Source of the DNA: Patescibacteria group bacterium
GTDB lineage: Bacteria > Patescibacteriota > Minisyncoccia > Phycocordibacterales > UBA9973
NCBI GenBank assembly: GCA_018813625.1
Contig: JAHJBA010000057.1
Span: forward strand, 1 to 33,560
DNA: 33,560 nt
Direction of reading: 5' to 3'
Positions within the stretch are counted from its first letter, which is position 1; each line of letters opens with the position of its first letter. This document shows, in pieces, positions 1,347 through 31,595 of the stretch. Below the pieces are notes generated by a model. The model had not been told where the DNA came from. It was given only the letters and a program-made list of their open reading frames with translations, and searched no databases. The translations under genes were made by a program, and so were the position numbers.

Positions 1347-1371
1347 AAGATCCCTGAAAAGGGATTTTTTG
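1347..1371 (+). terminator. Putative rho-independent terminator after rpsG
   Basis: AAGATCCC-tgaaaa-GGGATTTTTT hairpin followed by a T-run. Confidence 0.5.
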
Positions 1372-1400
1372 TTGACATGGGAATGTGAAAAGTATATAAA
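1372..1400 (+). promoter_or_regulatory. Sigma70-like promoter for the orphan ORF 1439..1780
   Basis: TTGACA (1372-1377), 17-nt spacer, TATAAA (1395-1400). Confidence 0.55.
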
Positions 1401-1438
1401 TAAAGTAGAGAAAATAGTACAAAACTAAATTTGTTGCC

Positions 1439-1780
1439 ATGGAAGAAAAAATGAGAGATGTAGAAACCATTGCTGAAGAACTGAGGCAGATGAATGGAGA
1501 CATTGGACTTGTTTCTAGGAAAATTGAGCTTTGCTTTGAATTGATGACATCTTATTGTCAGAAAAAAAAGGGAAAAAGGTTTTGGTTTCTTTCATGGGGA
1601 TATTTTATAGAAAGGAGCCATTGCGTTTATGCTGCCAAGGTTTTGGGCAATATGCAACACAAAGACTTGGCTCTTGGAAAAAGAGCTTTAAAGTTCACGG
1701 AGGAATTTGAAAAAGAACTTCCTTCAAAGGTCACAAAGAACTTATTCTTTGTAGCTCACAAAATGAACAAGCCAAACTAA
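1439..1780 (+). CDS. Hypothetical protein (113 aa) inserted between rpsG and fusA
   Basis: Intact ORF with its own promoter and terminator; no family recognised from the sequence. Confidence 0.5.
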   Translation: MEEKMRDVETIAEELRQMNGDIGLVSRKIELCFELMTSYCQKKKGKRFWFLSWGYFIERSHCVYAAKVLGNMQHKDLALGKRALKFTEEFEKELPSKVTKNLFFVAHKMNKPN

Positions 1781-1803
1781 ACCGCCCTTGAGCGGTTTTT
1801 TTA
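1780..1803 (+). terminator. Rho-independent terminator
   Basis: AACCGC-ccttga-GCGGTT followed by TTTTTTATTT. Confidence 0.7.
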
Positions 1804-1806
1804 TTT

Positions 1807-1873
1807 GTCCAGATAGCAGGTTTAATAAAGTTTAAAGGTGCGCTTTGCGCATTATTAAAATTCACTACGGGGT
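1807..1873. repeat. Family C palindromic element, copy C1 (degenerate left arm)
   Basis: The right arm ATTATTAAAATTCACTACGGGG and the apical GCGCTTTGCGC match copies C2-C4. The left arm is only partly complementary. Confidence 0.55.
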
Positions 1874-1900
1874 TTGCAAAAAAAAAGTTTATGTTATATA
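1873..1900 (+). promoter_or_regulatory. Putative promoter of fusA (extended -10)
   Basis: TTTGCA (1873-1878), 16-nt spacer, TGtTATATA (TG 1892-1893, hexamer 1895-1900), directly after element C1. Confidence 0.45.
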
Positions 1901-1956
1901 GTCTTCATAGCGCACTAGGCGCTTTTTATCATTAAATTTGTTTTTAGATATTTTAT

Positions 1957-4104
1957 ATGGAAAGAGATTATCCGTTAGAAAAAGTTAGGAACATTGGAAT
2001 TATCGCACACATTGATGCGGGCAAAACAACGACTACTGAGCGTGTTTTGTTTTATACTGGAGTTTCACACAAAATAGGTGAAGTGCATGAGGGCGAAACT
2101 GTCACCGATTGGATGGAACAAGAAAGAGAAAGAGGAATTACTATTACCTCTGCTGCAGTTACCTGCTTCTGGACTCCGACTTATGCCAATAATGACAAAA
2201 GCAAGAAACATCGTTTTAATATTATTGACACGCCGGGGCATATTGATTTTACCGTAGAAGTAAAAAGATCTCTTCGCGTGCTTGATGGCGCTGTTGTAGT
2301 TTTTGATGGAGTAGCAGGAGTAGAACCTCAATCTGAAACAAATTGGCGTTATGCTGATGAAGCGAAGGTCCCACGTATTTGTTTTATAAATAAATTGGAT
2401 AGAACAGGTGCTTCCTTTGAACGTTCTTATGCAACGATTTTAGATCGTCTTACTAAAAAAGCTGTTCGAATGCAGATACCTATTGGTCTTGAAGAAAAAC
2501 ATGAAGGTGTTGTGGATCTTTTAAAAATGAAGGCCTATTACTTTGAAGGAGAGATGGGCAATCAGGTTATTGAAAAGGAAATTCCAGAAGAAATGAAGGC
2601 AGATGCTGAAAAGTATCGCAATGAATTAATAGAAAAAATTGTGGAACAGGACGATGCAGTCATGAATGATTATTTTGAAGGCAAAATTCCGGAGATTGAT
2701 GTTTTGAAAAAACTTTTGAGACAGGGAGTTATTGCTAATGAAATCTTTCCAGTCTATGCTGGTTCTGCTTTGAAAAATAAAGGTGTTCAATTGGTGCTTG
2801 ACGGAGTAGTCGACTATCTTCCTTCTCCGCTTGATATTCCACCAATGGAAGGAATCGATCCAAATAATGAAGAACATGTAGAAAGAAAAGCCTCAGATTC
2901 TGAACCATTTGCCGCTCTCGCCTTTAAGGTTGCGACTGATCCATTTGTGGGCCAGCTCATTTTCTTTAGAGTTTATTCCGGAACACTTGCTTCTGGGTCT
3001 TATGTTTATAATCCAAGGACTAGAAACAAAGAACGTATTGGTAGAATTTTACGCATGCACGCAAACGATAGAGAAGAGGTGAAGAAAGTTTTTGCTGGGG
3101 AAATTGCCGCTGCGGTTGGGCTTAAAGATACTATTACCTCGGACACAATTTGTGACGAAGAACATCCGATTGAATTGGATAGAATTATTTTTCCAGAACC
3201 AGTTATTTCTCTTCGCATAGAACCAAAAACCAAAGCTGATCAAGAAAAAATGGGCATGGCATTAAATAGGCTTGCTCAAGAAGATCCGACTTTTAAAGTT
3301 AGCACAGACCAAGAAACAGGAGAGACAATTATTTCTGGTATGGGAGAACTTCACTTAGAAATTATTGTTGATCGCATGAAAAGAGAATTTAGCGTTGAGG
3401 CAAATGTGGGCAAGCCACAAGTTGCTTATCGCGAAACGATTACTGGAAATTCAGAAGCAGAAGGTAAGTATATCAAGCAGTCTGGCGGGCGTGGTAATTA
3501 CGGCCATGTGAAGATAAAGGTAAAACCAATGACCATTCTCACAAAAGAAGAGATAGAAGATTTGCCTAAAAACACAAAGCGCTCGGGTGGATTCGAGTTC
3601 ATAAACAACATCAAAGGGGGGGTTATTCCACAAGAATATATTCCTGCTTGTGAGAAGGGATTTAGGGAAGGTCTTGATCGTGGAGTTTTGGCAGGATTCA
3701 AAATGGTAAATGTTTCAGTTGATCTTTGGGATGGAAGTTACCATGAAGTAGACTCAAACGAAATGGCTTTTAAAATTGCAGCTTCTATGGCAATTCAAGA
3801 TGCTTGTAAAAGAGCGAATCCAGTTATTTTAGAACCAATGATGAAGGTTGAAGTTGTCACTCCGGATAAGTTCATGGGAGATGTTACAGGTAATCTTTCA
3901 TCAAAACGTGGAATTATTGAAGGAATGGAAGAGCGCGGAATGAATAAAGTTATTAAAGCCATTGTGCCATTATCTGAAATGTTTGGTTACATGACTGGTC
4001 TTCGTTCCATGACTGAAGGAAGAGCATCATTCACTATGGAATTCATTCGTTACGATATTGTGCCAAACAATGTGGCAGAAACCATCATTGCTGCACGAAA
4101 GTAG
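1957..4104 (+). CDS. fusA: Elongation factor G
   Basis: 715 aa; [23 protein letters not shown] and NKLDR GTPase motifs. Confidence 0.97.
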
Positions 4105-4124
4105 ATCTCAATTTTATTTTATAT

Positions 4125-4151
4125 TTGACAGACCTGCTTTTAAAATATAAG
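4125..4151 (+). promoter_or_regulatory. Possible promoter for ORF 4177..4419
   Basis: TTGACA (4125-4130) and TATAAG (4146-4151), but the spacer is only 15 nt. Confidence 0.3.
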
Positions 4152-4176
4152 CTGAATTTAAACTTGAACAAAAAAT

Positions 4177-4419
4177 ATGGAAAAGATGGAAAATAAAGAA
4201 AATTTCTTTATCGACCAAAGTAAAATAAATGAAGAGGAAAAATATGTAAGCGTGCCCGTTAATTACCCTGAATATTATGATAGAGATGATGTAGTATGGT
4301 TTTGGAATAAGGTTGAGGATGAATTGAAGAAAAAATATCCAGATATTAATTTTTCAGGAATATCAGAGGGAAAATCTGGGGAAGATGGGAAAGAAGAATT
4401 TTTGTTTTACTTTGAATAA
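4177..4419 (+). CDS. Hypothetical acidic protein (80 aa) inserted between fusA and tuf
   Basis: Intact ORF followed by a hairpin terminator; no family recognised. Confidence 0.45.
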   Translation: MEKMENKENFFIDQSKINEEEKYVSVPVNYPEYYDRDDVVWFWNKVEDELKKKYPDINFSGISEGKSGEDGKEEFLFYFE

Positions 4420-4455
4420 AGCCTTTTGTTTTGACAACACGAGGCTTTTTTTATT
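4419..4455 (+). terminator. Putative rho-independent terminator
   Basis: AGCCTTTTGTT-ttgac-AACACGAGGCT hairpin followed by TTTTTTTATTT. Confidence 0.55.
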
Positions 4456-4457
4456 TG

Positions 4458-4525
4458 ATCCCGTAGTAGATTTTGATGATGCCCTTAAGGCGCGCTTTGC
4501 GCTTCATCAAAATTCACTACCGGAT
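4458..4525. repeat. Family C palindromic element, copy C2
   Basis: ATCCCGTAGTAGATTTTGATGA ... GCGCGCTTTGCGC ... TCATCAAAATTCACTACCGGAT. About 22-bp arms, preceded by TTGAT; the last T begins the TTGACA -35 box. Confidence 0.85.
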
Positions 4526-4552
4526 TGACATTGTTTTCTAATTTGCTATTAT
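4525..4552 (+). promoter_or_regulatory. Sigma70-like promoter upstream of tuf
   Basis: TTGACA (4525-4530), 16-nt spacer, TATTAT (4547-4552). Confidence 0.6.
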
Positions 4553-4741
4553 CTTAGGTAACTGCACTTTCGGCAGTTTTTCTATTGCTAATTTATTAAT
4601 TTTAGTAATATTAAATTATTAACAATAATCCCGACGTAAAATCGGGACTCCGATCTAAAGGGTCGGAGTTTAGTTAAATTAGTAATTAAGCCTTAGCGAC
4701 TGGTTCTCGTACGTTAAGTTTTAATTATTAAAAATAAAAAT

Positions 4742-5935
4742 ATGGCAGAAGAATTTAAAAGAGATAAGCCACACGTAAACGTTGGCACCATCGGTCACGT
4801 TGACCATGGAAAGACTACATTAACAGCTGCAATTTTGCATGTTCTTAATTTGGCTGGGAATCAGGTAAGGCTTCGCGATGTTAATCAGATTGACAATGCT
4901 CCTGAAGAAAAGGCTCGTGGAATTACTATAAATATTTCACACAACGAGTATGAGACTGCGACTCGTCACTATGCTCACATCGATGCTCCAGGACACGCTG
5001 ACTATATTAAAAACATGATTACCGGTGCCGCTCAAATGGACGGTGCTATTTTAGTGGTTGCCGCAACGGACGGAGCTATGCCTCAGACACGCGAACACGT
5101 TCTCCTTGCAAAACAGGTTGGTGTTCCAAAAATAATCGTATTTCTAAACAAGTGCGATATGGTTGACGATAAGGAAATGATTGATATGGTTGAAGAAGAA
5201 ATTCGTGAACTTCTAACCAAGCAAGGATTTGATGGCGCAAATGCTCCTGTTATAAAGGGATCAGCGCTTAAGGGTCTTGAAGCAAAGGATGTTAACGACG
5301 AATGGGCAAAGAAAATTCTTGAACTTACAAATGCTTTAGATACATACATTCCAGTTCCAGAGAGAGATACATCTAAGCCTTTTTTGATGCCGGTTGAGGA
5401 TATTTTCTCAATTGAAGGCCGTGGCACAGTTGTAACCGGAAAAATCGAAAGAGGTATTGTAAAAGTTGGAGAAGAAATCGAAATTATCGGCATAAAGCCA
5501 ACTCAGAAGTCGGTAGTGACTGGTATTGAAATGTTCAACAAAAACTTACAAGAAGGTATGGCAGGAGACAATGCTGGTATTCTTCTTCGTGGACTAAAGA
5601 AAGAAGATATTACTCGTGGGCAAGTTCTTGCAAAGCCAGGAACAGTTACACCACATGATAATTTTACCTGTGAAGTTTATGTTTTGAAAAAAGAGGAAGG
5701 TGGGCGTCACACCCCATTCTTTAAGGGTTACAAGCCTCAATTCTATATCAGGACTACTGATGTTACGGGCGACGTTACTCTTGCAGATGGTGTAGAAATG
5801 GTTATGCCAGGAGATACGGCAAAACTTACCGTTAAGTTGGTTACTCCGGTTGCCCTTGAGGAATCGCAAAAATTTGCTATCCGCGAGGGAGGTAAGACCG
5901 TCGGGGCAGGAGTCGTTGTGAAGATTCTTGCTTAA
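4742..5935 (+). CDS. tuf: Elongation factor Tu
   Basis: 397 aa; [21 protein letters not shown] and NKCD motifs. Confidence 0.98.
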
Positions 5936-5963
5936 TAAAATTAAAAACGCAATTTATTAGTTC

Positions 5964-6407
5964 ATGACAACATCAGAAACAAAAGTAAAAAAGCCGAAAG
6001 CGGTAAAAGCGACAAAAGCAACGAAGACAGTTAAAGCAGTCGCTAAAACGACCACTAAGGATTCCAAAGAGCCGAAAACAAAAAAGAAAAAAGAGGATGG
6101 GAAAGTGGTACTTCGCATCAGAGTTCGTGCCTACGAGAGCAAGATACTAGATGCGTCAGTCAAACAAATTATAGATACCGCAATGCGTTACGATGCCACT
6201 GTCGTTGGGCCGGTTCCTTTGCCAACGGAGATTAAGAAATATACGGTTAATCGTGCTTCTTTTATCTACAAAAATACACGAGAACAATTTGAAATAAGAG
6301 TACATAAAAGATTAATTGATATTATTAACCCGTCAGCAAAAACAGTTGAAGCGCTTACTAACCTTTCGCTTCCTTCGGGAGTTGATATTGACGTGAAGAT
6401 GCTGTAA
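5964..6407 (+). CDS. rpsJ: 30S ribosomal protein S10 with a ~45-aa Lys-rich N-terminal extension
   Basis: The C-terminal ~100 aa (LRIRVRAYESKILD...PLPT...) are canonical S10. The N-terminus is KKPKAVKATKATK...KTKKKK. Confidence 0.95.
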   Translation: MTTSETKVKKPKAVKATKATKTVKAVAKTTTKDSKEPKTKKKKEDGKVVLRIRVRAYESKILDASVKQIIDTAMRYDATVVGPVPLPTEIKKYTVNRASFIYKNTREQFEIRVHKRLIDIINPSAKTVEALTNLSLPSGVDIDVKML

Positions 6408-6414
6408 GAAGGAA

Positions 6415-6544
6415 ATGAATCCCGTTAGAAGCCGCGATCGCAATTTAAAAATAGATAAAAATATGAAATCAAATATAGAAAAAATTAATAACATAAAACA
6501 TCAGATATGCGAGTTGATCGCGATCTGCTTCTAAACAGGATGAA
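6415..6544 (+). repeat. Family A start-codon hairpin element, copy A1 (between rpsJ and rplC)
   Basis: ATGAA|TCCCGTTAGAAGCCGCGATCGC ...~75 nt A-rich... GATCGCGATCTGCTTCTAAACAGG|ATGAA. Long inverted repeat with a duplicated ATGAA. Confidence 0.85.
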
Positions 6545-7154
6545 ATTTATTCTTGGAACAAAAGAAAATATGATTGAGTATTTTTCTGAAGACGGTACAG
6601 TCATACCTGTAACGGCTGTTTTGGCTGGTCCAGTGACCGTGACCAGGGTGTTTGAAAAATCCAAGGATGGATATAATGCGGTGCAGGTTGGTTTTGGTGT
6701 TCAAAAAAAACACAGAATAAGCAAAGCAAGTATAGGCCAAATGAAAGGTGGTTTTTACAAAAATCTTAAGGAATTCAGACTAAAGCCCACCGATTCAACC
6801 GATTTCAAAGAAGGTGACATAATTGATGTCTCGGCTTTTTCCATTGGCGATAAATTGATAATTTCTGGTACTTCAAAAGGAAAAGGTTTTCAGGGAGTCG
6901 TTAAGCGACATGGCTTTGGTGGTGGTCCTAGAACGCACGGGCAGAAACATTCAGAAAGAGAACCTGGATCGATTGGTGGGGGACTAAGAACCCATGTTCC
7001 TAAAGGGATGAGGATGGCAGGTAGAATGGGACAGGATCGTATCACTCAGAAAAATTTGAAGGTTATTTTCACAGACAAGGAAAATAACATTATGTTAATT
7101 AAGGGTGCAGTACCTGGCAGGCGTGGCAGTTTGGTTGAAATAATAAGTAGATAG
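6540..7154 (+). CDS. rplC: 50S ribosomal protein L3
   Basis: MKFILGTKENM... is a canonical L3 N-terminus; KGKGFQGVVKRHGFGGGPRTHG motif. The track start at 6507 lies inside repeat A1. Confidence 0.93.
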   Translation: MKFILGTKENMIEYFSEDGTVIPVTAVLAGPVTVTRVFEKSKDGYNAVQVGFGVQKKHRISKASIGQMKGGFYKNLKEFRLKPTDSTDFKEGDIIDVSAFSIGDKLIISGTSKGKGFQGVVKRHGFGGGPRTHGQKHSEREPGSIGGGLRTHVPKGMRMAGRMGQDRITQKNLKVIFTDKENNIMLIKGAVPGRRGSLVEIISR

Positions 7155-7156
7155 AT

Positions 7157-7284
7157 ATGGATCCCGTTAGAAGTCGCGATCGCGATTATAATGGAAATAA
7201 AAACATGAAAGAAGATAATAAAACACAAAAAAATATTGAAACTTCCGAAAATACCAGATCGCGACCTACTTCTAACGGGATGGA
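7157..7284 (+). repeat. Family A element, copy A2 (between rplC and rplD)
   Basis: ATGGA|TCCCGTTAGAAGTCGCGATCGCG ... AGATCGCGACCTACTTCTAACGGG|ATGGA. 14-bp perfect outer stem plus a 7-bp CGCGATC/GATCGCG inner stem. Confidence 0.85.
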
Positions 7285-7939
7285 AGCAAAAATTTACAAT
7301 CAAAAAGGAATTGAAAAAGGAAAAATAATTCTTTCAGAGAAGGTTTTTGGTGCTAAGTGGCGAGCTGATTTGGTTCATCAGGTCGTAGAAGGCATGCGTT
7401 CTAATAAAAGAGCTGGTACAGCGGATACAAAAGGTAGAGGGGAGGTTTCTGGAGGAGGAAAGAAGCCTTGGAAACAAAAAGGAACAGGACGTGCTCGTCA
7501 TGGATCCACACGAAGCCCTATTTGGGTTGGAGGGGGTGTTACCCATGGGCCTCTTGCAGAAAAGAACTATAAAAGGAAGATTTCGAAGACAATGCGTGCA
7601 CAAGCTTTATTTTCAGTTTTGTCAAAAAAATTAAAAGACGAGGAGATACTCTTTGTTGATTCTTTATCCTTGCCCGGAATTAAGACAAAAGACGCCGTGG
7701 AAGTAATGAAAAATTTAGCTAAGGCCTCAGGATTTAAAATGATCGCTGAATCAAAAAAACCTAAAGCTCTTGTGGCTCTCTATGAGAGAAACGAGAAAGC
7801 AGAAAAAAGTTTTAGAAATTTATCTCAACTTGAAATGGTTTTTTTAAAAAACTTAAACCCCGTAGATGTTTTGAATCATAGATATCTTTTGATAGAAAAT
7901 CCAGAAGAAAGTGTTAAGTTTTTAGAAAGTCGAGGTTAA
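7280..7939 (+). CDS. rplD: 50S ribosomal protein L4
   Basis: MEAKIYNQKG...; KPWKQKGTGRARHGSTRSPIWVGGGVTHGP motif. The upstream in-frame 41 codons (from 7157) are repeat A2. Confidence 0.88.
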   Translation: MEAKIYNQKGIEKGKIILSEKVFGAKWRADLVHQVVEGMRSNKRAGTADTKGRGEVSGGGKKPWKQKGTGRARHGSTRSPIWVGGGVTHGPLAEKNYKRKISKTMRAQALFSVLSKKLKDEEILFVDSLSLPGIKTKDAVEVMKNLAKASGFKMIAESKKPKALVALYERNEKAEKSFRNLSQLEMVFLKNLNPVDVLNHRYLLIENPEESVKFLESRG

Positions 7940-7943
7940 AAAT

Positions 7944-8016
7944 ATACTTGTCCCGTGCTAAATTTTTGATTACGGGGCATAAAGATGAAGATTATTAATA
8001 AAATTTTAGTACTGGG
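7944..8016 (+). repeat. Family B hairpin element, copy B1 (between rplD and rplW)
   Basis: ATACTTGTCCCGTGCTAAATTTTTGATTACGGGGCATAAAGATGAAGATTATTAATAAAATTTTAGTACTGGG, immediately followed by the ATG of rplW. Confidence 0.85.
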
Positions 8017-8292
8017 ATGATAACGATGAAAATAATTAAAAAACCAAGAGTTACCGAGAAGGCATCTTTCGTGGCAGAACAGAATGTTTACACTTTTGAT
8101 GTCCCAAAGTCTGCAAATAAAACGGAGATTAAAAAAGCAATTTTTGAACTTTATAAAGTAAAGCCAGTTAAAGTAAATATTTTAACAGTTCCATCAAAGA
8201 AGATTTTTGTTAGAGGAAAAGTTGGGACAAAGAGTGGTGGTAAAAAAGTTCTTGTTTATTTAAAAAAAGAAGATAAGATAGAAATTATTTAA
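8017..8292 (+). CDS. rplW: 50S ribosomal protein L23
   Basis: IIKKPRVTEKA... is L23-like; position between L4 and L2. The start could also be the ATG at 8026. Confidence 0.92.
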   Translation: MITMKIIKKPRVTEKASFVAEQNVYTFDVPKSANKTEIKKAIFELYKVKPVKVNILTVPSKKIFVRGKVGTKSGGKKVLVYLKKEDKIEII

Positions 8293-8308
8293 TCCTGTAC
8301 AAGAAAAT

Positions 8309-9157
8309 ATGAAAAAATATAAACCTACAACCAAATCAAGAAGACAAATGACGAATGTTAATTATCGTGGGGTTTTAACCAAAACTGAACCGGAAAAATC
8401 GTTGACCCATGGGTTTAGGCGTTCTGTTGGAAGAAATAGTCAAGGGCGCATTACAACTCGTCACAAAGGGTCAGGACACAAGCGTCTTTTCAGGGATATT
8501 GATTTTATGTATGACAAAAAGGAAATTCCGGCAAAAATAAAATCTATAGAATATGACCCGAACCGCTCAGCCTTTATTGGTCTTGCAGTTTATAAAGATG
8601 GTGAAAAAAGATATGTAATCTTACCTAAGTCTATAAAACCAGGAAGTTCATTTTTAGTTTCGGAAAAAGCGGAGCTTACTACTGGCAATAGATTACCTTT
8701 AAAAAATATTCCAGTTGGAACTTTTGTTTACAATGTAGAAATAAAGCCTCGTGGAGGTTCAAAAATAGGAAGATCAGCAGGAATTTTTGCACAAGTTGTA
8801 GCAAACGCAGAAGGGTACACAAATTTAAAAATGCCTTCAAGCGAGGTGCGTAAAGTTTCAGAAAATTGCTGGGCATGTATTGGTTCTGTTTCGAACGAAG
8901 AACATCATTTAGAGAACTATGGTAAGGCAGGTAGATCTCGCTGGAAGGGAATTCGACCGACTGTGCGAGGAACCGCCATGAATCCGGTTGATCATCCCTA
9001 TGGCGGAGGAGAAGGAAGACAGGGACGTGGAACAAAGAGGCCAAAAACAAAGTGGGGAAAGGTGACTGGCGGAAGAAAAACTAGAAAACCAAAGAAATAT
9101 TCAAATATATTTATTGTATCTCGCAGAAAAACAGGCAAATCCAGAAAAAGTCAATAA
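8309..9157 (+). CDS. rplB: 50S ribosomal protein L2
   Basis: 282 aa; HKGSGHKRLFRDIDF and MNPVDHPYGGGEGR motifs. Confidence 0.97.
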   Translation: MKKYKPTTKSRRQMTNVNYRGVLTKTEPEKSLTHGFRRSVGRNSQGRITTRHKGSGHKRLFRDIDFMYDKKEIPAKIKSIEYDPNRSAFIGLAVYKDGEKRYVILPKSIKPGSSFLVSEKAELTTGNRLPLKNIPVGTFVYNVEIKPRGGSKIGRSAGIFAQVVANAEGYTNLKMPSSEVRKVSENCWACIGSVSNEEHHLENYGKAGRSRWKGIRPTVRGTAMNPVDHPYGGGEGRQGRGTKRPKTKWGKVTGGRKTRKPKKYSNIFIVSRRKTGKSRKSQ

Positions 9158-9174
9158 AAACAAAAACTTTTTTA

Positions 9175-9201
9175 ATACACAGGCGAGTCCTGTGTATTTT
9201 T
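9175..9201 (+). terminator. Rho-independent terminator inside the S10 cluster (after rplB)
   Basis: ATACACAGG-cgagt-CCTGTGTAT followed by TTTTTGTTTTTG. Confidence 0.7.
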
Positions 9202-9209
9202 GTTTTTGT

Positions 9210-9237
9210 TTGACTTTATTTTGTATTTTGCTATTAT
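9210..9237 (+). promoter_or_regulatory. Sigma70-like promoter upstream of rpsS
   Basis: TTGACT (9210-9215), 16-nt spacer, TATTAT (9232-9237). Confidence 0.55.
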
Positions 9238-9276
9238 AAAACTTAGCTCGATTTCGGGCTTTATTTATTATAGTTT

Positions 9277-9618
9277 ATGACACGATCAATTAAAAAAGGT
9301 ATAAATTTGGATGAAAGGTTATTAAAAAAGATAGCTGGGAAAAATCCGCTTCAAACTCCAATGGTAAAAACATGGAATAGGGCGTGCCAGATAGCACCTG
9401 AAATGGTTGGCTTTACTTTCGGTGTCTATAATGGAAAAAGTCACATTGAAGTCTTGGTGTCAGAGGATATGGTTGGGCACAGACTAGGGGAGTTTTCTCC
9501 AACCAGAAAGTTTATAAAACATGGAGGAAAGATGCAGAAAGAGCTTGAGCAGAAGAAGAAAGAAGCCGAAATAGCTCAGGCCAAAGCTGCTACAGCGGCG
9601 GCAGCCGATAAAAAATAA
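9277..9618 (+). CDS. rpsS: 30S ribosomal protein S19 with a C-terminal extension
   Basis: GHRLGEFSPTRKFIKHG motif; ~20 extra Lys/Ala-rich residues at the C-terminus. Confidence 0.95.
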   Translation: MTRSIKKGINLDERLLKKIAGKNPLQTPMVKTWNRACQIAPEMVGFTFGVYNGKSHIEVLVSEDMVGHRLGEFSPTRKFIKHGGKMQKELEQKKKEAEIAQAKAATAAAADKK

Positions 9619-9654
9619 CCTGCCTGCCGGGCAGGTAGGTTTAATAAAAAAATC

Positions 9655-10146
9655 ATGAAAGCATTTTTAAAAAATTACAGACAATCTCCTAGAAAAGTTC
9701 GCTTAGTTGCAGGACTCATTAAGGGCAAGGATGTTGCGAGGGCTATCGTTGAGCTTGATTTTTTAGTGAAGCGCGCAGGAGACCCGATCAAAAAACTTTT
9801 ACTTTCTGCTGTTGCGAATGCTAGTCAGATGGGAAAGGAAAAAGAAAATTTATTTATAAAGGAAGTGCGAGTTGATAAGGGAATAGTTATGAAAAGAATA
9901 ATGCCAGCCGCCATGGGGTCAGCACATAGGATTAACAAACGCACGAGTCATATAATCCTGACTCTTGGAGAGAAGGGGGAAAAAATGATAAAAAACAAAA
10001 AAGAAGAGAAAAAAAATTTAAAAACAAAAGAGGGGAAAAAGCCCATAAAAGATGTTTTAGACAGCAATATTAAAAAAGAAGTCAAAAAAACAGCTAAAAA
10101 AGAAGTCAAAAAAGTCGTAAAAAAGGTAGTAACCAAGAAAAAATAA
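9655..10146 (+). CDS. rplV: 50S ribosomal protein L22 with a ~50-aa Lys-rich C-terminal extension
   Basis: SPRKVRLVAGLIKGKDV... L22 core followed by a KKEVKKTAKKEVKKVVKKVVTKKK tail. Confidence 0.93.
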   Translation: MKAFLKNYRQSPRKVRLVAGLIKGKDVARAIVELDFLVKRAGDPIKKLLLSAVANASQMGKEKENLFIKEVRVDKGIVMKRIMPAAMGSAHRINKRTSHIILTLGEKGEKMIKNKKEEKKNLKTKEGKKPIKDVLDSNIKKEVKKTAKKEVKKVVKKVVTKKK

Positions 10147-10150
10147 TTAT

Positions 10151-10825: not shown

Positions 10826-10841
10826 GAATTAATTAAACAAC

Positions 10842-11267
10842 ATGTTATTACCAAAGAAAGTAAAATTTAGAAAATGGCATACCGGACGCTTAAATCCAAA
10901 AGCTATGACGCCAGAAACCAGGGGGACGAAGCTTGCCTTCGGTTCTTTTGGGCTTAAGGCTGAGACTCAATCTCGTGTAAAATCAAACCAGATCGAATCT
11001 GCCAGAAAGGTTATATCTCGTACGCTTACTAAGGCTGGTAAATATTGGATACGTATTTTCCCAGATCGTCCCTATACTGCAAAAGCAGCAGAGGTAGGAA
11101 TGGGAAAGGGAAAAGGAGACCCGCAGGGATATTGTTTTGAAGTTTTTCCGGGACGTATTCTTTTTGAAGTTGATGGAGTTGAAGGATCGATTGCAAAAGA
11201 AGCCCTAAGAAAAGCTGGTACGAAGCTTCCGCTTAAGACTAGGATTATTTCAAGATCTAATAAATAA
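10842..11267 (+). CDS. rplP: 50S ribosomal protein L16
   Basis: MLLPKKVKFRKWHTGR... is a canonical L16 start. Confidence 0.97.
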   Translation: MLLPKKVKFRKWHTGRLNPKAMTPETRGTKLAFGSFGLKAETQSRVKSNQIESARKVISRTLTKAGKYWIRIFPDRPYTAKAAEVGMGKGKGDPQGYCFEVFPGRILFEVDGVEGSIAKEALRKAGTKLPLKTRIISRSNK

Positions 11268-11275
11268 TATTTATT

Positions 11276-15307: not shown

Positions 15308-15379
15308 TACTTGTCCCGTACTAAATTTTTGATTACGGGGCATAACAATGAAGATTATTAATAAAATTTTAGTACTGGG
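15308..15379 (+). repeat. Family B hairpin element, copy B2 (between rpsE and rplO, in the usual L30 slot)
   Basis: TACTTGTCCCGTACTAAATTTTTGATTACGGGGCATAACAATGAAGATTATTAATAAAATTTTAGTACTGGG followed by the ATG of rplO. Confidence 0.85.
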
Positions 15380-15817
15380 ATGCAGATACATAATTTAAAA
15401 AGACAACATAAGAACAAAAAAGATCGCATGGTTGGCCGTGGAGGAAAACATGCAAAAACATCGGGTCGTGGAGGTAAGGGGCAGACCGCAAGGGCTGGCA
15501 ATAAGCGACGTCCGGAATTACGTGATATCATAAAAAAATTACCGAAAAACCGTGGATATAAATTTAATTCTTTTCAAATAAAACCGGTTGGTGTTTCGTT
15601 TGATAAAATAATGGGAGCATATTCGAATGGTGGGACAGTTGACCCTATTAGTCTACTTGAATTGAAGATAATAAGTAAAAAGAAAGGGATTGTTCCAAAA
15701 GTTAAAATTTTGAACGGCAAAAAAGACTTTAACTTAAAAATAAAAATTTCAAAGTGTTTTGTTTCTGATTCTGTTAAAAAAAAGATAGCAGAATTGGGCG
15801 GAGAAATTGAACTATAA
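15380..15817 (+). CDS. rplO: 50S ribosomal protein L15
   Basis: GRGGKHAKTSGRGGKGQTARAG motif; position before secY. Confidence 0.93.
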   Translation: MQIHNLKRQHKNKKDRMVGRGGKHAKTSGRGGKGQTARAGNKRRPELRDIIKKLPKNRGYKFNSFQIKPVGVSFDKIMGAYSNGGTVDPISLLELKIISKKKGIVPKVKILNGKKDFNLKIKISKCFVSDSVKKKIAELGGEIEL

Positions 15818-17099: not shown

Positions 17100-17164
17100 A
17101 CCTGGTAGTGAATTTTGATGATATTTAAATGCGTTTTGCGCGTCATCAAAATCTACTACCGGGT
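17100..17164. repeat. Family C palindromic element, copy C3 (arms in flipped orientation)
   Basis: ACCTGGTAGTGAATTTTGATGA ... GCGTTTTGCGC ... TCATCAAAATCTACTACCGGGT. Preceded by TTGAC; the last T begins the TTGATT -35 box. Confidence 0.85.
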
Positions 17165-17783: not shown

Positions 17784-17856
17784 TACTTGTCCCGTATGAA
17801 ATTTTTGATTAAACGAAATAAAGATGAATACAAAAAATAAAAATTTTCATACTGGG
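17783..17856 (+). repeat. Family B hairpin element, copy B3 (divergent; between adk and the pyrH-like gene)
   Basis: ATACTTGTCCCGTATGAAATTTTTGATTAAACGAAATAAAGATGAATACAAAAAATAAAAATTTTCATACTGGG followed by ATG at 17857. Both arms changed in a compensatory way. Confidence 0.8.
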
Positions 17857-18537
17857 ATGGAAGAAATAATAATCATTTCACTCGGAGGTTCACTCATTAT
17901 TCCCGATCAGATAGATGTGGATTTTTTGAAAGACTTCAAAAATCTGATTCTTTTGCATATTTCACAAGGGAAAAAATTTATAATCATAACCGGCGGTGGA
18001 AAGATCTGCAGAAGGTATCAAGAAGTTGCTAAAGAAATTTCGAATCCCTCAAATGAAGACTTAGATTGGATAGGGATTGCTTCTCTTAAACTAAATGCGG
18101 AACTGCTCAGGGTTATTTTTAGTGAAAAGGCACACGAAAAAGTTGTTAGTGATCCACACCAGAAATTGTCTTTTGAAAAGCCGATTATCATTTGTTCAGC
18201 TTATAAGCCTGGAAGGAGTACGGATTGGGATACCGTGATAGTGGCCAAGAATGTTGGTGCCAAAAAAGTAATCAATCTTTCGAACATTGACTATGTTTAT
18301 GATTCTGACCCGAAGATAAACCCAAATGCTAAAAAGATAGAAAAGATATCTTGGGCGGAATATCGTTCAATTATCCCAAAAGAATGGAATCCAGGCTTAA
18401 ATACTCCTTTTGACCCTATTGCTTCAGAAATGGCTGAAAAAGAGGGAATGCAGGTCGTAATTATGAACGGCAAGCCAGTGAGTAATTTAGCTAAGTGTTT
18501 GAATGGCGAGAAGTTTCTTGGAACGATAATAGAATGA
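17857..18537 (+). CDS. pyrH: Amino-acid-kinase-fold protein, archaeal-type UMP kinase-like
   Basis: MEEIIIISLGGS..., ITGGGK, ...SDPKINPNAKKIEKIS... and ...GTIIE resemble archaeal-type uridylate kinases of ~225 aa. The start is chosen at the ATG that follows repeat B3. Confidence 0.7.
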   Translation: MEEIIIISLGGSLIIPDQIDVDFLKDFKNLILLHISQGKKFIIITGGGKICRRYQEVAKEISNPSNEDLDWIGIASLKLNAELLRVIFSEKAHEKVVSDPHQKLSFEKPIIICSAYKPGRSTDWDTVIVAKNVGAKKVINLSNIDYVYDSDPKINPNAKKIEKISWAEYRSIIPKEWNPGLNTPFDPIASEMAEKEGMQVVIMNGKPVSNLAKCLNGEKFLGTIIE

Positions 18538-20203: not shown

Positions 20204-20276
20204 ATACTTGTCCCGTACTGAATTTTTGATTACGGGGCATAAAGATGAAGATTATTAATAAAATTTTAGTACTGGG
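20204..20276 (+). repeat. Family B hairpin element, copy B4 (between the Cys-rich ORF and map)
   Basis: ATACTTGTCCCGTACTGAATTTTTGATTACGGGGCATAAAGATGAAGATTATTAATAAAATTTTAGTACTGGG followed by the ATG of map. Confidence 0.85.
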
Positions 20277-21047
20277 ATGGCAATAATAATTAAAACACCA
20301 GAGGAAATAAAAATAATAAGAGAAGGAGGGAAAAGACTCGCTACTGTTTTAAACAAAGTTAAGGAGATGGTTGCTCCTGGTATTTCGACTAAGGATTTGG
20401 ACGATTATGCAAGAAAGCTTATCAGTGAGATGGGAGACTATCCATCTTTTTTAAATTATTCACCCGATGGTGCCAGCAAGCCCTATCCAGCGGCTCTTTG
20501 CGTATCGGTTAATGATGAAGTTGTACACGGCATTCCTAACAAAGATAGAATTTTGCAAGAAGGAGATATCGTTTCTATAGATCTGGGATTGAAGCATAAA
20601 AATCTTTTTACCGACATGGCCATGACAGTTTCGGTTGGCGAAATAAGTTCGTCTTCAAAGAAGCTTTTAGAAACAACGGAGAGGGCATTGTATGTTGGAA
20701 TAAATGCTGTGCGAGCAGGAAATAGAATAGGAGATATAGGTCATGCTATAGAAAGTTTTGTTCGTCCACATAGGTATGGCATTGTAGAAGTTTTGGCGGG
20801 GCATGGTGTTGGTAAGGCGGTTCACGAGGATCCATATATTACAAATTTTGGCAAAAAGGGAATGGGGGAGAAATTAGTTCCAGGTATGGTTATAGCCATA
20901 GAGCCGATGATAAATAATGGAACTAAAAATGTGACCCTAGATAAGGACGGTTATACTTTTCGTACCGCAGACGGAAAAAAGAGTGCACACTTCGAGCACA
21001 CCATTCTTGTCACGGAAGGGGAGCCAGAAATCTTGACTCGAATATAA
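20277..21047 (+). CDS. map: Type I methionine aminopeptidase
   Basis: 256 aa; HGIPN, DxG...D, HGVG, EPM and EHT metal-ligand pattern. Confidence 0.96.
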   Translation: MAIIIKTPEEIKIIREGGKRLATVLNKVKEMVAPGISTKDLDDYARKLISEMGDYPSFLNYSPDGASKPYPAALCVSVNDEVVHGIPNKDRILQEGDIVSIDLGLKHKNLFTDMAMTVSVGEISSSSKKLLETTERALYVGINAVRAGNRIGDIGHAIESFVRPHRYGIVEVLAGHGVGKAVHEDPYITNFGKKGMGEKLVPGMVIAIEPMINNGTKNVTLDKDGYTFRTADGKKSAHFEHTILVTEGEPEILTRI

Positions 21048-21611: not shown

Positions 21612-21722
21612 AATATTTTTGTGTTTAATTATTTTTATAAAGCGACTTTTAATATTATATACATTTTGATTAATGATTGTCCACTAAACTAGTATACCAA
21701 ATTTAATTTTAAAAGTCAATGG

Positions 21723-29150: not shown

Positions 29151-30488
29151 CAACCGGACTTGGTTAAATATAGTATTTATGCGATTTTCTTCTTTGGCCT
29201 CGCCAATTATGCGTATTACTGGCTCAGTATTGGAGGGTCTAATATGAACCCATGAAGAGTCTGGCCAGTCGAAGCGTAGGCCGTCTAGGGTGTTTGTAGA
29301 TGCCTCTTTGAACTTTGCCTTAAGTTTCTCATAAAGTAGAGTTAGGTCGCCAGAAAAGGTAATTTTATCTTTTTTCATAAAATATTTAGGCAGGCTCTCT
29401 ATAATTTCTGATATATTTTTTTTCTCTCTTGCCATAAGCTCGAGAACAAGAGCAATACCGGCCAGGCTATCTCTGGCTGTATTTATTTTAGAATAAATGA
29501 CCCCACCATTTCCTTCTCCTCCTATGAGTGCGCCTCTTTCAATCATTTTTTCGACTACATTAGGTTCGCCGACTTTTGTTCTAAAAACTTTTTTATTGTA
29601 ATTATTTGCCAAGTCTTCACACATTTTTGAGGTAGACATATTTAAGATCACATCGCTAGGGTTTTTAGATAGAACACTTTTTACGGCGAGTGCTAGTGTA
29701 TATTCTTCATTTAAAATTTCTCCTTTTTCATTTGCGAGTACCAGACGGTCAGCATCGGGGTCCTGGGCGAATCCTATATCTGAATTATTTTTAGAGACTG
29801 CTTCCGCTAGTTGTTTTAAATTTTTTGCCAGTGGTTCTGGTTCGTGCGCGAATTCTCCATTTTGTTCTTCGTTGATTTGAGAAACTTCACAGCCGAGTTC
29901 CTCCAGTAATTTTTTTGTGATTGTACTGCCTGCGCTATTTATAGGATCGTGGGTAACTTTAAATTTTTTGCTTTTGATCAGGTTTACGTCTATATTTTTT
30001 AATACTTCTTTTATGTGTATCTTTTGATAGCTAGAATTGTCGCAAACTTCTTCCTCATTTTCTTTTTGTGAAAAATTTTTTTCATCTTCAATTAAATTTT
30101 TTCTATTTTCCTCGATTTTTTCTATTTCTTTTTGGGTGGCGAATAGACCATTTTTATTTATAAATTTAAGACCGTTATATTCTCTAGGATTATGCGAAGC
30201 AGTTATCATTATTCCTCCACCAAAAGAGAGTTTTCTTGCTAGAAGAAGCATCGATGGAGTAGGGATGATGCCGGCGTATTCTCCCTCTAAGCCTTCTTTT
30301 TTTAATGCTAATTTTATAGCTTTAAATATTTGTGGTCCGGTTTTGCGTGCATCTCGCCCGATTAAAATTTTATGGCCTCCTTGTTCTTTTATCATTTTTG
30401 CAAAAGCACGCCCAAAATCAAAAGCGATTTTCTCGTCTAAATCTTTGCCCCATATTCCTCTATATCCCGAAACATTCAATTTTGGCAT
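29142..30488 (-). CDS. glmM: Phosphoglucosamine mutase / phosphohexomutase family protein
   Basis: ITASHNPREYNGLKF phosphoserine loop; DPDADR; GGEGNGG. The gene symbol is tentative because PGM/PMM cannot be excluded. Confidence 0.8.
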   Translation of the reverse strand: MPKLNVSGYRGIWGKDLDEKIAFDFGRAFAKMIKEQGGHKILIGRDARKTGPQIFKAIKLALKKEGLEGEYAGIIPTPSMLLLARKLSFGGGIMITASHNPREYNGLKFINKNGLFATQKEIEKIEENRKNLIEDEKNFSQKENEEEVCDNSSYQKIHIKEVLKNIDVNLIKSKKFKVTHDPINSAGSTITKKLLEELGCEVSQINEEQNGEFAHEPEPLAKNLKQLAEAVSKNNSDIGFAQDPDADRLVLANEKGEILNEEYTLALAVKSVLSKNPSDVILNMSTSKMCEDLANNYNKKVFRTKVGEPNVVEKMIERGALIGGEGNGGVIYSKINTARDSLAGIALVLELMAREKKNISEIIESLPKYFMKKDKITFSGDLTLLYEKLKAKFKEASTNTLDGLRFDWPDSSWVHIRPSNTEPVIRIIGEAKEENRINTIFNQVRLIL

Positions 30489-30516
30489 GCCTGTATTTTA
30501 CATTAATTATTTTAAA

Positions 30517-30549
30517 TAAAAAACAGCTTTGTTTTTTACAAAGCTTTTG
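30517..30549 (-). terminator. Rho-independent terminator downstream of tmRNA
   Basis: Minus strand: AGCTTTGT-aaaaa-ACAAAGCT followed by GTTTTTTATTT. Confidence 0.7.
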
Positions 30550-30557
30550 CTTAGATG

Positions 30558-30947
30558 TGGAGATGGGGGGAATTGAGCCCCCGTGCAGAAGGTTTTTGTA
30601 AGGAAGTCTACATACTTAGCGCGCTTGTTTGTTTAAATTAAAAAATTATTAAGCGAGCGAAATATTTTTTAATCGATCCTCTATGTTTTGGAAGAAAGTC
30701 GAGGTATTCTTTTTCCTATCCCGATAATATTATGCCTTACCCTATATATCGGAAGTCTATAGGGAAGACACCAACTTACGCTAGAGCGTATGCTGGAGCA
30801 AATCCGAACGCATTACCGAAGTAAGGCGAACGAACTGCCTTAGTAGCTAATTTTGCAATTAGACATTTGAGCGAAGTTTTGCGAGATTGCGCTCATTCTC
30901 GGTATGCATCAATAACAAAAGGCCAACTGTCTATGCCTTGCATCCCC
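30558..30947 (-). ncRNA. ssrA: tmRNA (SsrA)
   Basis: Minus strand 5' GGGGATGCAAGGCATAGACAG pairs with the 3' ...GGGGGCTCAATTCCCCC-CATCTCC-A. This gives an acceptor stem with a G3.U pair and a T-arm. An internal frame ends ...GNAFGFAPAYALA-TAA (stop 30776-30778). Lies 11 nt downstream of smpB. Confidence 0.8.
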
Positions 30948-30958
30948 ATTTTTTGTTT

Positions 30959-31420
30959 TCAACGTCCTTTATATTCGCGCCTTACTTCTCTTTCCGTCTC
31001 GCGCTTTTTGATCGTCTCTCTCTTGTCGTGTTTCTTTTTTCCTTTCACTAAAGCAATTTCTACTTTAATTTTTCTGCCTTTATTATACACTGAAATTGGC
31101 ACTATTGTCAAACTTTTGTTTTTTTCGCTTCCGGCAAGTTTTTCTACTTCTTTTTTGGTCAGCAAAAGTTTTCTATTTCTAAGCGGATCGTAATCTTTCG
31201 GCATATTATTTGGCTGGTATGGTTGTATATTTGTATTGATTAAAAAAGCTTCACCTCCACGAATTATGACATAAGCCCCCTCGAGCGATATTTTTCCGCT
31301 TCTGATGGATTTAACTTCAACTCCTAAAAGCTCAATGCCTGTTTCGTATTTTTCGAGAATTTCGTAATTAAAATGTATTTTTCTGTTTTCAGCGTAGTTT
31401 GCCATATCCAATCTTACCAT
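30959..31420 (-). CDS. smpB: SsrA-binding protein SmpB
   Basis: ENRKIHFNYEILEKYETGIELLGVEVKSIRSGKISL... and the C-terminal basic tail. The start could be the internal ATG at 31405. Confidence 0.93.
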   Translation of the reverse strand: MVRLDMANYAENRKIHFNYEILEKYETGIELLGVEVKSIRSGKISLEGAYVIIRGGEAFLINTNIQPYQPNNMPKDYDPLRNRKLLLTKKEVEKLAGSEKNKSLTIVPISVYNKGRKIKVEIALVKGKKKHDKRETIKKRETEREVRREYKGR

Positions 31421-31452
31421 AAATTTTTATCCTTTTCTTTGCTCATTTTTTA

Positions 31453-31461
31453 TGCTAATAT
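31453..31461 (+). promoter_or_regulatory. Extended -10 promoter (TGcTAATAT) positioned 6 nt before the first ATG of element A4
   Basis: TG at 31453-31454, TAATAT at 31456-31461, then CTACGC, then ATG at 31468. Confidence 0.45.
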
Positions 31462-31467
31462 CTACGC

Positions 31468-31595
31468 ATGGATCCCGTTAGAAATCATTCAGTTAATTGA
31501 AATTACGGGAAATAATATATTGAATTAGCTTGTATAGTCGTTTTTAGTAATTTAACTACGGAAATCTAAAGATTTCCTATTTCTAACGGGATGGA
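31468..31595 (+). repeat. Family A element, copy A4 (on the ftsH start codon)
   Basis: ATGGA|TCCCGTTAGAAAT ... ATTTCTAACGGG|ATGGA. 14-bp perfect terminal stem; the interior differs from A1-A3 and has the internal hairpin GGAAATC-taaa-GATTTCC. Confidence 0.85.

Follow-up and report, generated by a model that had tools for sequence, protein, structure and literature searches.

Introduction

Of the published systems compared, the closest to the elements described here is that of the Ssn enzymes and their repeats (Ssn/SRM). SsnA is a GIY-YIG single-strand nuclease of 94 amino acids (aa), whose gene is flanked by a hairpin repeat dispersed in hundreds of copies; the authors call this gene-repeat architecture identical to that of insertion sequences, and the parts of their paper drawn on here ascribe to the system an influence on transformation and no movement of its repeats (Chenal et al., Nat Commun 2025, PMC11893778). 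In this study, we analyzed the whole of contig JAHJBA010000057.1 from a Patescibacteria group bacterium (33,560 nucleotides [nt], hereafter the window), in which three families of short hairpin elements, A (with its A2 form), B, and C, lie at start codons and promoter-like boxes. We consider it likely that A, C, and probably B are gene-less miniatures of a single superfamily of tiny mobile elements. This superfamily would be bounded by the inverted ends TCCCGT...ACGGGA, and its full forms would be units of about 278 bp carrying a single gene, which encodes a GIY-YIG nuclease of 84-90 aa.

As far as Ssn/SRM is described in that source, two of its features recur here: a single-domain GIY-YIG enzyme (94 aa in SsnA and 84-90 aa in our elements) and a nuclease gene flanked on both sides by a dispersed hairpin repeat. 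The NTS hairpin (..ATTCCCGCG..CGCGGGAAT..) also has the foot TCCCG/CGGGA in common with our elements; the rest of the NTS/SRM consensus given there, CGTCATTCCCGCGMAVGCGGGAATCYRG, is by eye unmatched by them, only TCCCG..CGGGA being shared. Unlike in the published system, each element here is a single long palindrome, with or without the gene inside it, A and C make target duplications, and the sites are start codons and promoter-like boxes. Ssn proteins are assigned there to CDD cd10448. The nuclease found here matches the Pfam GIY-YIG model and has a UPF0213 protein as its nearest structure.

Two further kinds of repeat are outlined in a review of small bacterial elements: MITEs (miniature inverted-repeat transposable elements), which are gene-less, shorter than 300 bp, and have terminal inverted repeats and target duplications, and Neisseria REP2, which lacks terminal inverted repeats and brings along its own promoter, ribosome-binding site, and ATG (Delihas 2011, PMC3184786). 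By that outline, our elements resemble MITEs in being short and gene-less, with inverted ends, target duplications, long hairpins, many intergenic copies, and presence or absence between relatives. The marks of MITEs and small insertion sequences that were found comprise terminal inverted repeats, presence/absence variation, duplications (in A and C, not in B), and a longer coding element (for A2 and C, not for B). They differ from MITEs in that the parent element codes for a GIY-YIG nuclease, not for a known class of transposase, and in that a start codon is the exact end point of more than 90% of copies, which rebuild it. REP2, as outlined there, is the closest repeat fused to start codons: it likewise adjoins the translational start of many unrelated genes and is predicted to form stem-loops in the 5' region of the mRNA. 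In contrast to REP2, our elements have inverted ends and duplications, contain no ribosome-binding site, and supply only the A of the ATG.

The Correia elements of Neisseria are MITEs that are co-transcribed with genes. GIY-YIG homing endonucleases such as I-TevI, whether free-standing or intron-borne, are like the present nuclease small GIY-YIG genes behaving as selfish DNA. They spread by repair into a single cognate allele, possess DNA-binding domains, and lack inverted ends, duplications, and miniatures. Repetitive extragenic palindromes (REPs) and bacterial interspersed mosaic elements (BIMEs) are, as Nunvar reportedly described in 2010, dispersed by REP-associated tyrosine transposases (RAYTs), each encoded by a single-copy gene flanked by the same repeats. 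Dispersed palindromes and an enzyme gene flanked by them are common to that system and ours, and systems of the REP/RAYT kind exist in the genus studied here; the present elements differ in the class of enzyme, in the lack of co-variation with RAYT-like genes, and in the duplications of A and C. No published description of these elements was found in open-access text, most subscription journals lying outside the scope of the search. New in this study are the test of the terminal clamp, the link of C (and less surely of B) to a nuclease-bearing superfamily, the co-variation test, and the figures on turnover.

A Common Terminus with an Invariant Core

The window is contig C34 of a draft genome (G000; 549 kb, 60 contigs, 36% G+C, 94% complete); positions elsewhere in this genome are given as contig and position. 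It was compared with 60 congeners, including G022, whose ribosomal protein L4 is 84% identical and of which 365 kb were fetched. Genus tallies and correlations over the 60 congeners, among them the surveys of family C, Y1 transposases, reverse transcriptases, nucleases, and B-type masters, take in one unpublished genome (G076), from which one C flank (L062) also comes; these genus-level statistics ignore the kinship of the genomes. Another genome, G230, forms one row of the phylum-wide survey described below.

According to the original prediction, A, B, and C share the termini ATCCCGT and GGGAT and might therefore belong to one superfamily. The quoted left and right ends of all three families are present in the window, and the common end is real; its limits, on the other hand, are not ATCCC/GGGAT, and the core is TCCCGT...ACGGGA. 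We counted each word together with its reverse complement 3-200 nt apart in G000 and in 40 dinucleotide-preserving shuffles. The proposed ATCCC/GGGAT clamp was not enriched (78 pairs vs. 73.4±10.1) and ranked 224th of 1024 by an analytic expectation that agreed with the shuffles, whereas clear excesses were observed for TCCCG/CGGGA (59 vs. 20.4±4.8), CCCGT/ACGGG (43 vs. 10.6±3.7), and TCCCGT/ACGGGA (25 vs. 1.4±1.1).

The outermost bases of the predicted clamp belong to the flanks. The base preceding TCCCG is the A of the duplicated ATGNA in family A, the G of ACTTG in B, and the A of TTGA in C, and the T after GGGA comes from the start codon or the target duplication. Among the elements of G000 and the fetched 365 kb of G022, positions 1-6 (TCCCGT on the left, A, then C or T, then GGGA on the right) are invariant in 45 of 45. 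All 45 have a complementary arm of 8-20 nt behind this end, and the ends of C are 16-21 nt long. The eight positions behind the invariant six fall into 23 arm types, with compensatory pairs at positions 7, 8, 9, 11, 12, and 13. Other palindromes in G000 carry other clamps, for example AACCTGCCTGCCGGCAGGCAGGTT.

Two of these other families are worth recording in their own right. AACCTGCCTGCCGGCAGGCAGGTT is a perfect palindrome in six copies (C2:449, C7:16671, C9:9372, C13:1639, C18:1926, and C36:1682), several of which adjoin tRNA genes, and its clamp is the most enriched 6-mer clamp of G000 (33 vs. 4.3 expected). An 11-copy family of nested palindromes (..GCACGGATATTTTTCTGCTGAAAAATTCCTCGTGCTCGCGCCGTCGCGCTC..), located at C10:8642, C10:11634, C10:13677, C32:1219, C45:1126, and other places in G000, often sits within a second, site-specific inverted repeat.

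Target Duplications and Empty Sites

By eye, 15 of the 16 A/A2 copies in G000 repeat at their left edge the gene's own ATG plus 2-3 nt (ATGAA, ATGGA, ATGAG, ATGCAA, or ATGAAA). The repeated bases follow the gene and not the family: at rplC the element stands between ATGAA and ATGAAATTT, and at rplD between ATGGA and ATGGAAGCA. Duplications in G022 are ATGAG, ATGGA, ATGAA, ATGTTA, and ATGTA. Among 78 distinct A copies elsewhere, an upstream ATG lies within 6 nt in 61 (ATGNN in 45, NATGN in 11, and ATGNNN in 5), and an exact adjacent repeat of 4 nt was found in 43. Several of the 17 copies lacking an upstream ATG are one substitution away from it (ATAGA, ATATA, ATTAA, TTGAA); duplications other than ATG also occur among the 78, namely CGTTG at a non-start site and GTGGA at a GTG start.

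Family C duplicates TTGA three times in the window (once as TCAA on the plus strand), and TATA, TCTA, TAGCA, ATCTAT, and TTTA in relatives. The left edge of B is a conserved (T)AYTTG without duplication. Where an empty B site could be aligned, AAAAAAAAT-ATGATC corresponds to AAAAAAAAT-ACTTG, the B element, and ATGATC, which places the insertion flush with the ATG and without duplication.

Orthologous junctions in relatives are largely empty. The rpsJ-rplC junction is short and element-free in 26 of 26 relatives; at the rplC-rplD junction, 26 of 28 relatives are empty, one (G008) has a member of another subfamily with the same ATGGA duplication, and one (G016) has a decayed relic; and at rplD-rplW, B is absent in all 26 readable relatives. 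When 29 elements of G000 were queried against G022, ten had an ortholog in the fetched part and all ten were absent there; in the reverse direction, 16 of 17 G022 elements had an ortholog and all 16 were absent in G000. At the tuf site of C, nine congeners match the promoter flank only, starting exactly from TTGACA, which corresponds to an empty site. Because of the 3-6-bp target duplications and the empty orthologous sites in relatives, these sequence comparisons indicate that families A and C are mobile.

Two other rearrangements were seen at such sites. In one congener (L016, G042:C8), an insertion of 847 nt with two small open reading frames (ORFs) splits the rplC-rplD junction. In L099 (JAUXUB010000024.1), two A-type elements stand in tandem at about 3000-3250, the second inserted at the ATGAA that the first had rebuilt.

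Full-Length Elements Encoding a GIY-YIG Nuclease

At G000:C5:1831-2108 (-), a unit of 278 bp with A2-type ends surrounds a gene at C5:1839-2090 (-) for an 84-aa GIY-YIG protein. After ATGGA, which is a duplication of the downstream start, the unit reads TCCCGTTAGAGATCAATC-ATG, the 84 codons, and CCTATCTCTAACGGGA, followed by TGGA; its left end is TCCCGTTAGAGATC, and the stop codon lies inside the right end. The right end of the A2 copy at ftsH, TTCCTATTTCTAACGGGA, matches the 3' end of this nuclease-coding element. The single domain of the protein matches Pfam GIY-YIG over the cut-off (E 2.7e-17), and small ORFs matching this model were found in all five genomes searched (G000 and four element-rich congeners). 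Among proteins of solved structure, the best relative is the UPF0213 GIY-YIG protein BH0048 (1zg2, E 6e-9); a weak NCBIfam match to TIGR01453 (E 5e-6) is below the cut-off.

The same 278-bp form occurs in G054, G046, and G071. In G054 it precedes an ORF whose first ten codons are near-identical to those of ftsH in G000, where a 119-nt A2 copy stands; we infer that the two sites are orthologous. A nuclease form with TACGAAAT arms in G064 has the same ATGCAA duplication as a miniature copy in G000. C-type ends (TCCCGTAGTAGATTTTT...AAAAATTCACTACAGGA) bound homologs of 89-90 aa in G046 (L220) and G048 (L225), the C-type nuclease being about 50% identical to the A-type one, and one C-ended nuclease element sits on an ATG with a TGGA duplication. 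Of 20 nuclease loci fetched, 16 had recognizable ORFs, 8 of these with TCCCG-type left ends and the others in other palindromes or in none.

The original prediction had proposed a search for candidate enzyme genes that co-vary with element presence, and the nuclease is such a candidate. Over the 60 congeners, the best identity to the G000 nuclease correlates with the element count (Spearman rho 0.48, p 9e-5; 0.46 without G076), and the median element count is 20 where a homolog reaches 80% identity or more and 2.5 elsewhere, the identity cuts (60% and 80%) being post hoc and the co-variation uncorrected for relatedness. Among known transposase families, DDE_Tnp_1 (PF01609), IS1380 (NF033539), and TnpB (PF07282) were each detected in none of the five genomes; rve was matched in three of the five (one match below the Pfam cut-off), with no match in G000 and G022. 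For Y2 transposases, the five genomes and the control genomes were silent alike, so that this search carries no weight.

Location at Start Codons and Promoter-Like Boxes

The right junction always falls between GGGA and TG, and the element's last A plus the duplicated TG makes a new ATG before an unchanged second codon. The old ATG and the upstream signals remain to the left of the element, and C behaves likewise at the TTGA or TATA of promoter-like boxes. A scan of G000 for TCCCG...YGGGATG hairpins gave 34 matches, from which C24:2506 and C38:708 were dropped (TCCTG, no CCCG clamp, 11/13 pairs). All 32 remaining copies are in the orientation of the downstream gene, and in 29 a frame of at least 60 codons opens at the rebuilt ATG, compared with 21% of the 17,044 ATGs in total. 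Of the three exceptions, two continue with TGNTATAAT (TGCTATAAT, TGATATAAT), which looks like an extended -10 box. For the 78 distinct A copies elsewhere (80 loci with DNA), TG follows the end in 75 and a frame of at least 60 codons in 71. Of 40 downstream proteins scanned among these 71, 38 have Pfam domains, many from residue 1-5. Their functions are unrelated (DnaA, SSB, TopA, trigger factor, RRF, RF, L3, L18, L29, S19, YidC, SecDF, Mur ligases, NrdR, and others), and the element-bearing genes form no regulon.

By our estimate, a surviving random insertion at TG would fall at a start in less than 10% of cases (about 600 starts among several thousand intergenic TGs); the location therefore implies either strong targeting or fast purging of copies that do not restore the start. 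For C, a promoter scan called three of the four sites in the window (tuf, infC, and fusA); the adk site, TTGATT-17-TATTCT, matches 8 of 12 positions by eye and was not called by the scan.

The elements contain no Shine-Dalgarno-like sequence before the ATG. The hairpins predicted in the mRNA range from -11.5 to -44 kcal/mol, with the A and U of AUG paired. In B, the stop codon of the upstream gene precedes the left arm by 6-11 nt. For A/A2, a coupling of translation via the upstream ATG was considered and rejected: only three of 15 copies (one without an upstream ATG) have an upstream ORF that stops at -7/-8 nt, in one copy it is in frame, and the remaining upstream ORFs end 27-122 nt upstream, without a conserved arrangement.

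Intermediate Forms and Distribution

Intermediate forms linking the families, another consequence of the original prediction, were found for A and B. At C43:2847-2939 of G000, a B-type ACTTG flank is combined with an A2-type arm. A pattern for the shared frame (TCCCGT, 50-110 nt, YGGGATG) was matched in 55 of the 60 congeners, with 0-42 copies per genome versus 0-2 in the reversed control, and the matches form a continuum from many 66-70-nt copies with A-type arms (TTAGAAAT) to 120-nt copies with other arms (TACGAAAT, TTAGAGAT). Of 24 congeners, 12 have B as such, which was not detected in any of 16 other genera of the order; C proper was found in 10 of the 60 congeners. The membership of B is probable, judged by its termini, arm covariation, and intermediates only; a search for a B-type master pattern in the 60 congeners gave 4 matches versus 6 in the reversed control.

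Spread across the phylum was judged by a scan for the exact 22-nt A end and not by the loose pattern, which is noisy in GC-richer genomes (control up to 4) and gave a clear excess in few lineages (21 vs. 3, 22 vs. 2, 18 vs. 1, and 15 vs. 0). The exact end occurs in at least 121 stretches of metagenome-assembled genomes of 29-55% G+C, whose titles name Nomurabacteria, Paceibacteria/-ota, Sungiibacteriota, Liptonbacteria, Terrybacteria, Taylorbacteria, Wildermuthbacteria, and Levyibacteriota, some being auto-labeled Saccharibacteria or Gammaproteobacteria. Neither the A end nor the B end matched viral contigs, in which phage carriage was sought, and no pairs of ends 0.3-6 kb apart were found in G000 and G022.

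Copies in the Window and in the Genome

The copies in the window are listed in table 1. Self-comparison of G000 revealed 16 copies of A plus A2 (80-122 nt), about 17 of B and B-like elements (64-104 nt), and six of C (63-68 nt); a few mini hairpins of 29-36 nt are also present.

Table 1. Elements of Families A, B, and C and Other Hairpins in the Window
Feature	Position (strand)	Length (nt)	Site and flanking sequence
A	6420-6540 (+)	121	Start of rplC (L3, by Pfam); ATGAA at 6415-6419 repeated at 6540-6544
A	7162-7280 (+)	119	Start of rplD (L4); ATGGA duplicated (7157-7161)
A	28393-28509 (-)	117	Between infC (IF3) and rpmI (L35); ATGAA duplicated
A2	31473-31591 (+)	119	Start of ftsH; ATGGA duplicated
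B	7946-8017 (+)		Start of rplW (L23); ACTTG, then TCCCGT..CTGGGA, then TG; no duplication
B	15309-15380 (+)		Start of rplO (L15)
B, diverged (65-79% to others)	17785-17857 (+)		Start of amino-acid-kinase-family gene
B	20206-20277 (+)		Start of map (methionine aminopeptidase, M24)
C	4459-4524 (+)		TTGA duplicated (4455-4458, 4525-4528); right TTGA opens the tuf promoter-like TTGACA-16-TATTAT
C	17101-17163 (+)		Between secY and adk; TTGA duplicated
C	29082-29149 (+)		Upstream of infC; TCAA duplicated (minus-strand TTGA); abuts TTGACT-17-TAAACT on the minus strand
C, decayed	1808-1872 (+)		Upstream of fusA; right end intact, left end eroded; then TTGCAA-17-TATAGT
Double hairpin	4629-4668 (+)		tuf leader; TCCCGACG..TCGGGA plus CTCCGA..TCGGAG; separate six-copy family
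Terminator-like hairpin	1350-1371 (+), stem 1350-1365		After rpsG; ATCCCT GAAA AGGGAT plus T-run; no CCCGT core
Terminator-like hairpin	27796-27819 (+), stem 27796-27813		ATCCCC TTGATA GGGGAT plus T-run; no CCCGT core

Three smaller hairpins had been thought to carry the same clamp. Those after rpsG and near 27791 are terminator-like and do not belong with the elements, and the one in the tuf leader is part of a double hairpin whose family occurs in both orientations relative to genes. The terminator reading of the first two was made by eye, and the hairpin at 1350-1365 was not listed by a terminator scan. The mini-ORF inside B (MKIINKILVLG) lacks conservation from copy to copy.

The window covers the str/S10/spc ribosomal-protein region, and its EF-Tu, L3, L4, L23, L15, adenylate kinase, amino-acid-kinase-family protein, methionine aminopeptidase, IF3, L35, and FtsH were confirmed by Pfam. 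In an Rfam 15 scan of the whole window at gathering thresholds, the tmRNA gene at 30555-30947 (-) was the sole match (RF00023, 113.8 bits), with none to the A, B, or C hairpins; a scan of 6300-8100 at E<=1 gave nothing.

Several features of the neighboring genes were also noted. Two small ORFs are wedged into the str operon, at 1439-1780 (rpsG-fusA; 113 aa) and 4177-4419 (fusA-tuf; 80 aa), and a terminator-like hairpin and a copy of family C lie downstream of each. In-frame upstream ATGs lengthen two called ORFs, that of L4 by the 41 stop-free codons that begin at the ATG upstream of the rplD element (7157-7279) and that of the amino-acid-kinase-family gene by 11 (17824-17856). The rpsJ ORF (5964-6095) has about 47 extra Lys-rich N-terminal codons, and tblastn matches in 26 relatives begin at residue 48-49; no repeat was detected in this extension.

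Discussion

The enriched core, the other clamps of other palindromes, the intermediates between A and B, and a candidate enzyme support the original prediction of one superfamily of hairpin elements with a shared kind of mobilizing enzyme. On balance, we lean toward a wider reading, in which A, B, and C would be the offspring of a new class of minimal transposons that is Patescibacteria-wide, targets or else persists solely at the first bases of start codons and promoter boxes, restores them by its last base together with a short duplication, and has the foot as the recognition site of its nuclease. By analogy, the nuclease may recognize the conserved TCCCGT/ACGGGA foot, perhaps as a single-strand DNA hairpin like the Ssn enzymes, and would cut, host repair then joining the ends. 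Miniatures that keep the foot would be moved in trans along with the full-length copies, and families that look unrelated would have kept one terminus because the nuclease recognizes the foot of all of them. The persistence of copies at start codons and promoter boxes might be due to aiming by the enzyme or, in a very compact genome, to the loss of all insertions that fail to rebuild the signal. The left arm would be covered by a ribosome that starts at the old upstream ATG, and in B a ribosome ending on the upstream gene would come close to that arm; either may open the stem.

Several points weigh against this reading. The nuclease is a candidate mobilizing enzyme whose activity is predicted, and cutting alone does not account for joining. 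Duplications of 3-6 nt (none in B) with a fixed right junction are unusual for classical transposases. The co-variation between nuclease and element load is support and not proof, because the genomes are kin and the cuts were post hoc; in one congener (G057) 36 elements go with no nuclease homolog at E<=1e-8, in another (G064) a 69% homolog goes with no match to the shared-frame pattern, and reverse transcriptase tracks element load as well. The link of C to promoters is a consensus match only, and targeting of start codons is indistinguishable from selection for them in sequence. B has no duplication, a conserved ACTTG left edge, and no nuclease-coding master that could be found.

The hairpins might instead be cis-regulatory RNA, operators or processing sites that hide the AUG, with the common end as the recognition site of an RNA-binding or RNA-cutting factor; we hold this to be unlikely. 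It would fit the uniform orientation of the 32 copies in G000, the pairing of the A and U of AUG, and an internal ACGGGR in many copies that could pair with the left end instead. The sense fold is also stabler than the antisense fold in 16 of 16 B and B-like copies, yet in only 7 of 15 A/A2 copies, and the six arm mismatches of the transition type are all G.T and none A.C. Regulatory RNA would leave the target duplications, the unrelated functions of the downstream genes, the lack of an Rfam family, and the identical ends of nuclease-coding forms without a cause, and as the sole explanation it is, on the aligned sites, already contradicted by the empty ones (none of 10 and none of 16 sites shared between G000 and G022, and none of 26 at rplC). 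An added effect on expression at the RNA level is possible; the sense-fold bias of B and the G.T mismatches are a weak sign of constraint on the RNA.

Spread of the miniatures through an RNA intermediate copied by a resident reverse transcriptase seems quite improbable. A right junction that is fixed and a left one that varies (3-6 nt of duplication, none in B), together with the sense orientation of all copies in transcribed genes, would agree with it, and of 19 genomes that have 10 or more elements, 16 contain a reverse transcriptase, versus 13 of the 42 remaining ones (Fisher p 2e-4, without correction for relatedness). However, the reverse transcriptase of G000 comes from a classical diversity-generating retroelement, in which an Avd-like gene is present and the template repeat (TR) and variable repeat (VR) differ only at adenines, and the reverse transcriptases of such retroelements are specialized. 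The retroelement is complete and lies outside the window at G000:C55:3492-5956; the VR of its target gene is at 4116-4225 and the TR at 4473-4583 (95 of 110 positions identical, all differences at TR adenines), followed by the Avd-like ORF at 4622-4993 (-) and the 339-aa reverse transcriptase at 4937-5956. Moreover, G048 has 15 elements in a 100% complete genome with no reverse transcriptase candidate, poly-A and 5'-truncation signatures are lacking, and the nuclease-coding masters have the same ends as the miniatures.

That the elements are REP-like palindromes moved by Y1 transposases (RAYT or IS200-like) is highly unlikely. Y1_Tnp genes are present in 42 of the 60 congeners and are flanked by palindromes in the fashion of REPtrons, B inserts without duplication as single-strand transposons do, and the ends of C contain GTAG, as in the GTAG rule of REPs. 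But the eight Y1 genes inspected (seven from 13 fetched loci, plus one) sit in other palindromes (TACCAAGGGGAACCCTTGGTA, GCAAGGACCGTCCTTGC) with no TCCCGT beside them, and G000 has 28 elements and no Y1 match. There is no co-variation (rho 0.12, p 0.34), six of 19 element-rich genomes lacking Y1, and A and C make duplications. Separately, the RAYT-like Y1 genes of 210-240 aa (L076, L078, L080-L083, and G022:C1:165211-165912) each have a palindrome of their own, often with TATAAT directly behind, and palindromes like these fill ribosomal-protein spacers in other species. A likeness to integron attC sites (GTTAGAA/TTCTAAC) was also considered and rejected, the boxes being in the wrong order relative to the loop by the rules for attC sites.

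We give almost no credence to the shared terminus as a trivial G/C clamp of three unrelated families, an idea that suits the 36% G+C of the genome, the lack of ATCCC/GGGAT enrichment, and the two small terminator-like stems, and that is possible for the double hairpin at 4629-4668, but that for A and C is refuted by the excess of TCCCGT/ACGGGA over shuffles, six invariant positions over 23 arm types, the other clamps of other palindrome families in G000 and its relatives, the retention of one 22-nt end where G+C reaches 55%, and the homology of the nucleases that A-type and C-type ends enclose.

About 5% of the gene starts of G000 carry a start-codon hairpin (32 copies, assuming about 600 genes), including those of rplC, rplD, rplW, rplO, rpmI, map, and ftsH. 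Gene callers will therefore misplace starts, lengthening L4, for example, by 41 codons and the ORF at 17824 by 11. Because no site is shared between two congeners, the elements can serve as markers of recent divergence. A compact genome here tolerates insertions in essential operons, the inserted element restoring the signal that it disrupts. If the 84-aa nuclease does move these elements, it would be among the smallest self-contained mobile genes, with a mobility outside the known transposase classes, and the superfamily would be a source of hairpin-specific nucleases like the Ssn enzymes.

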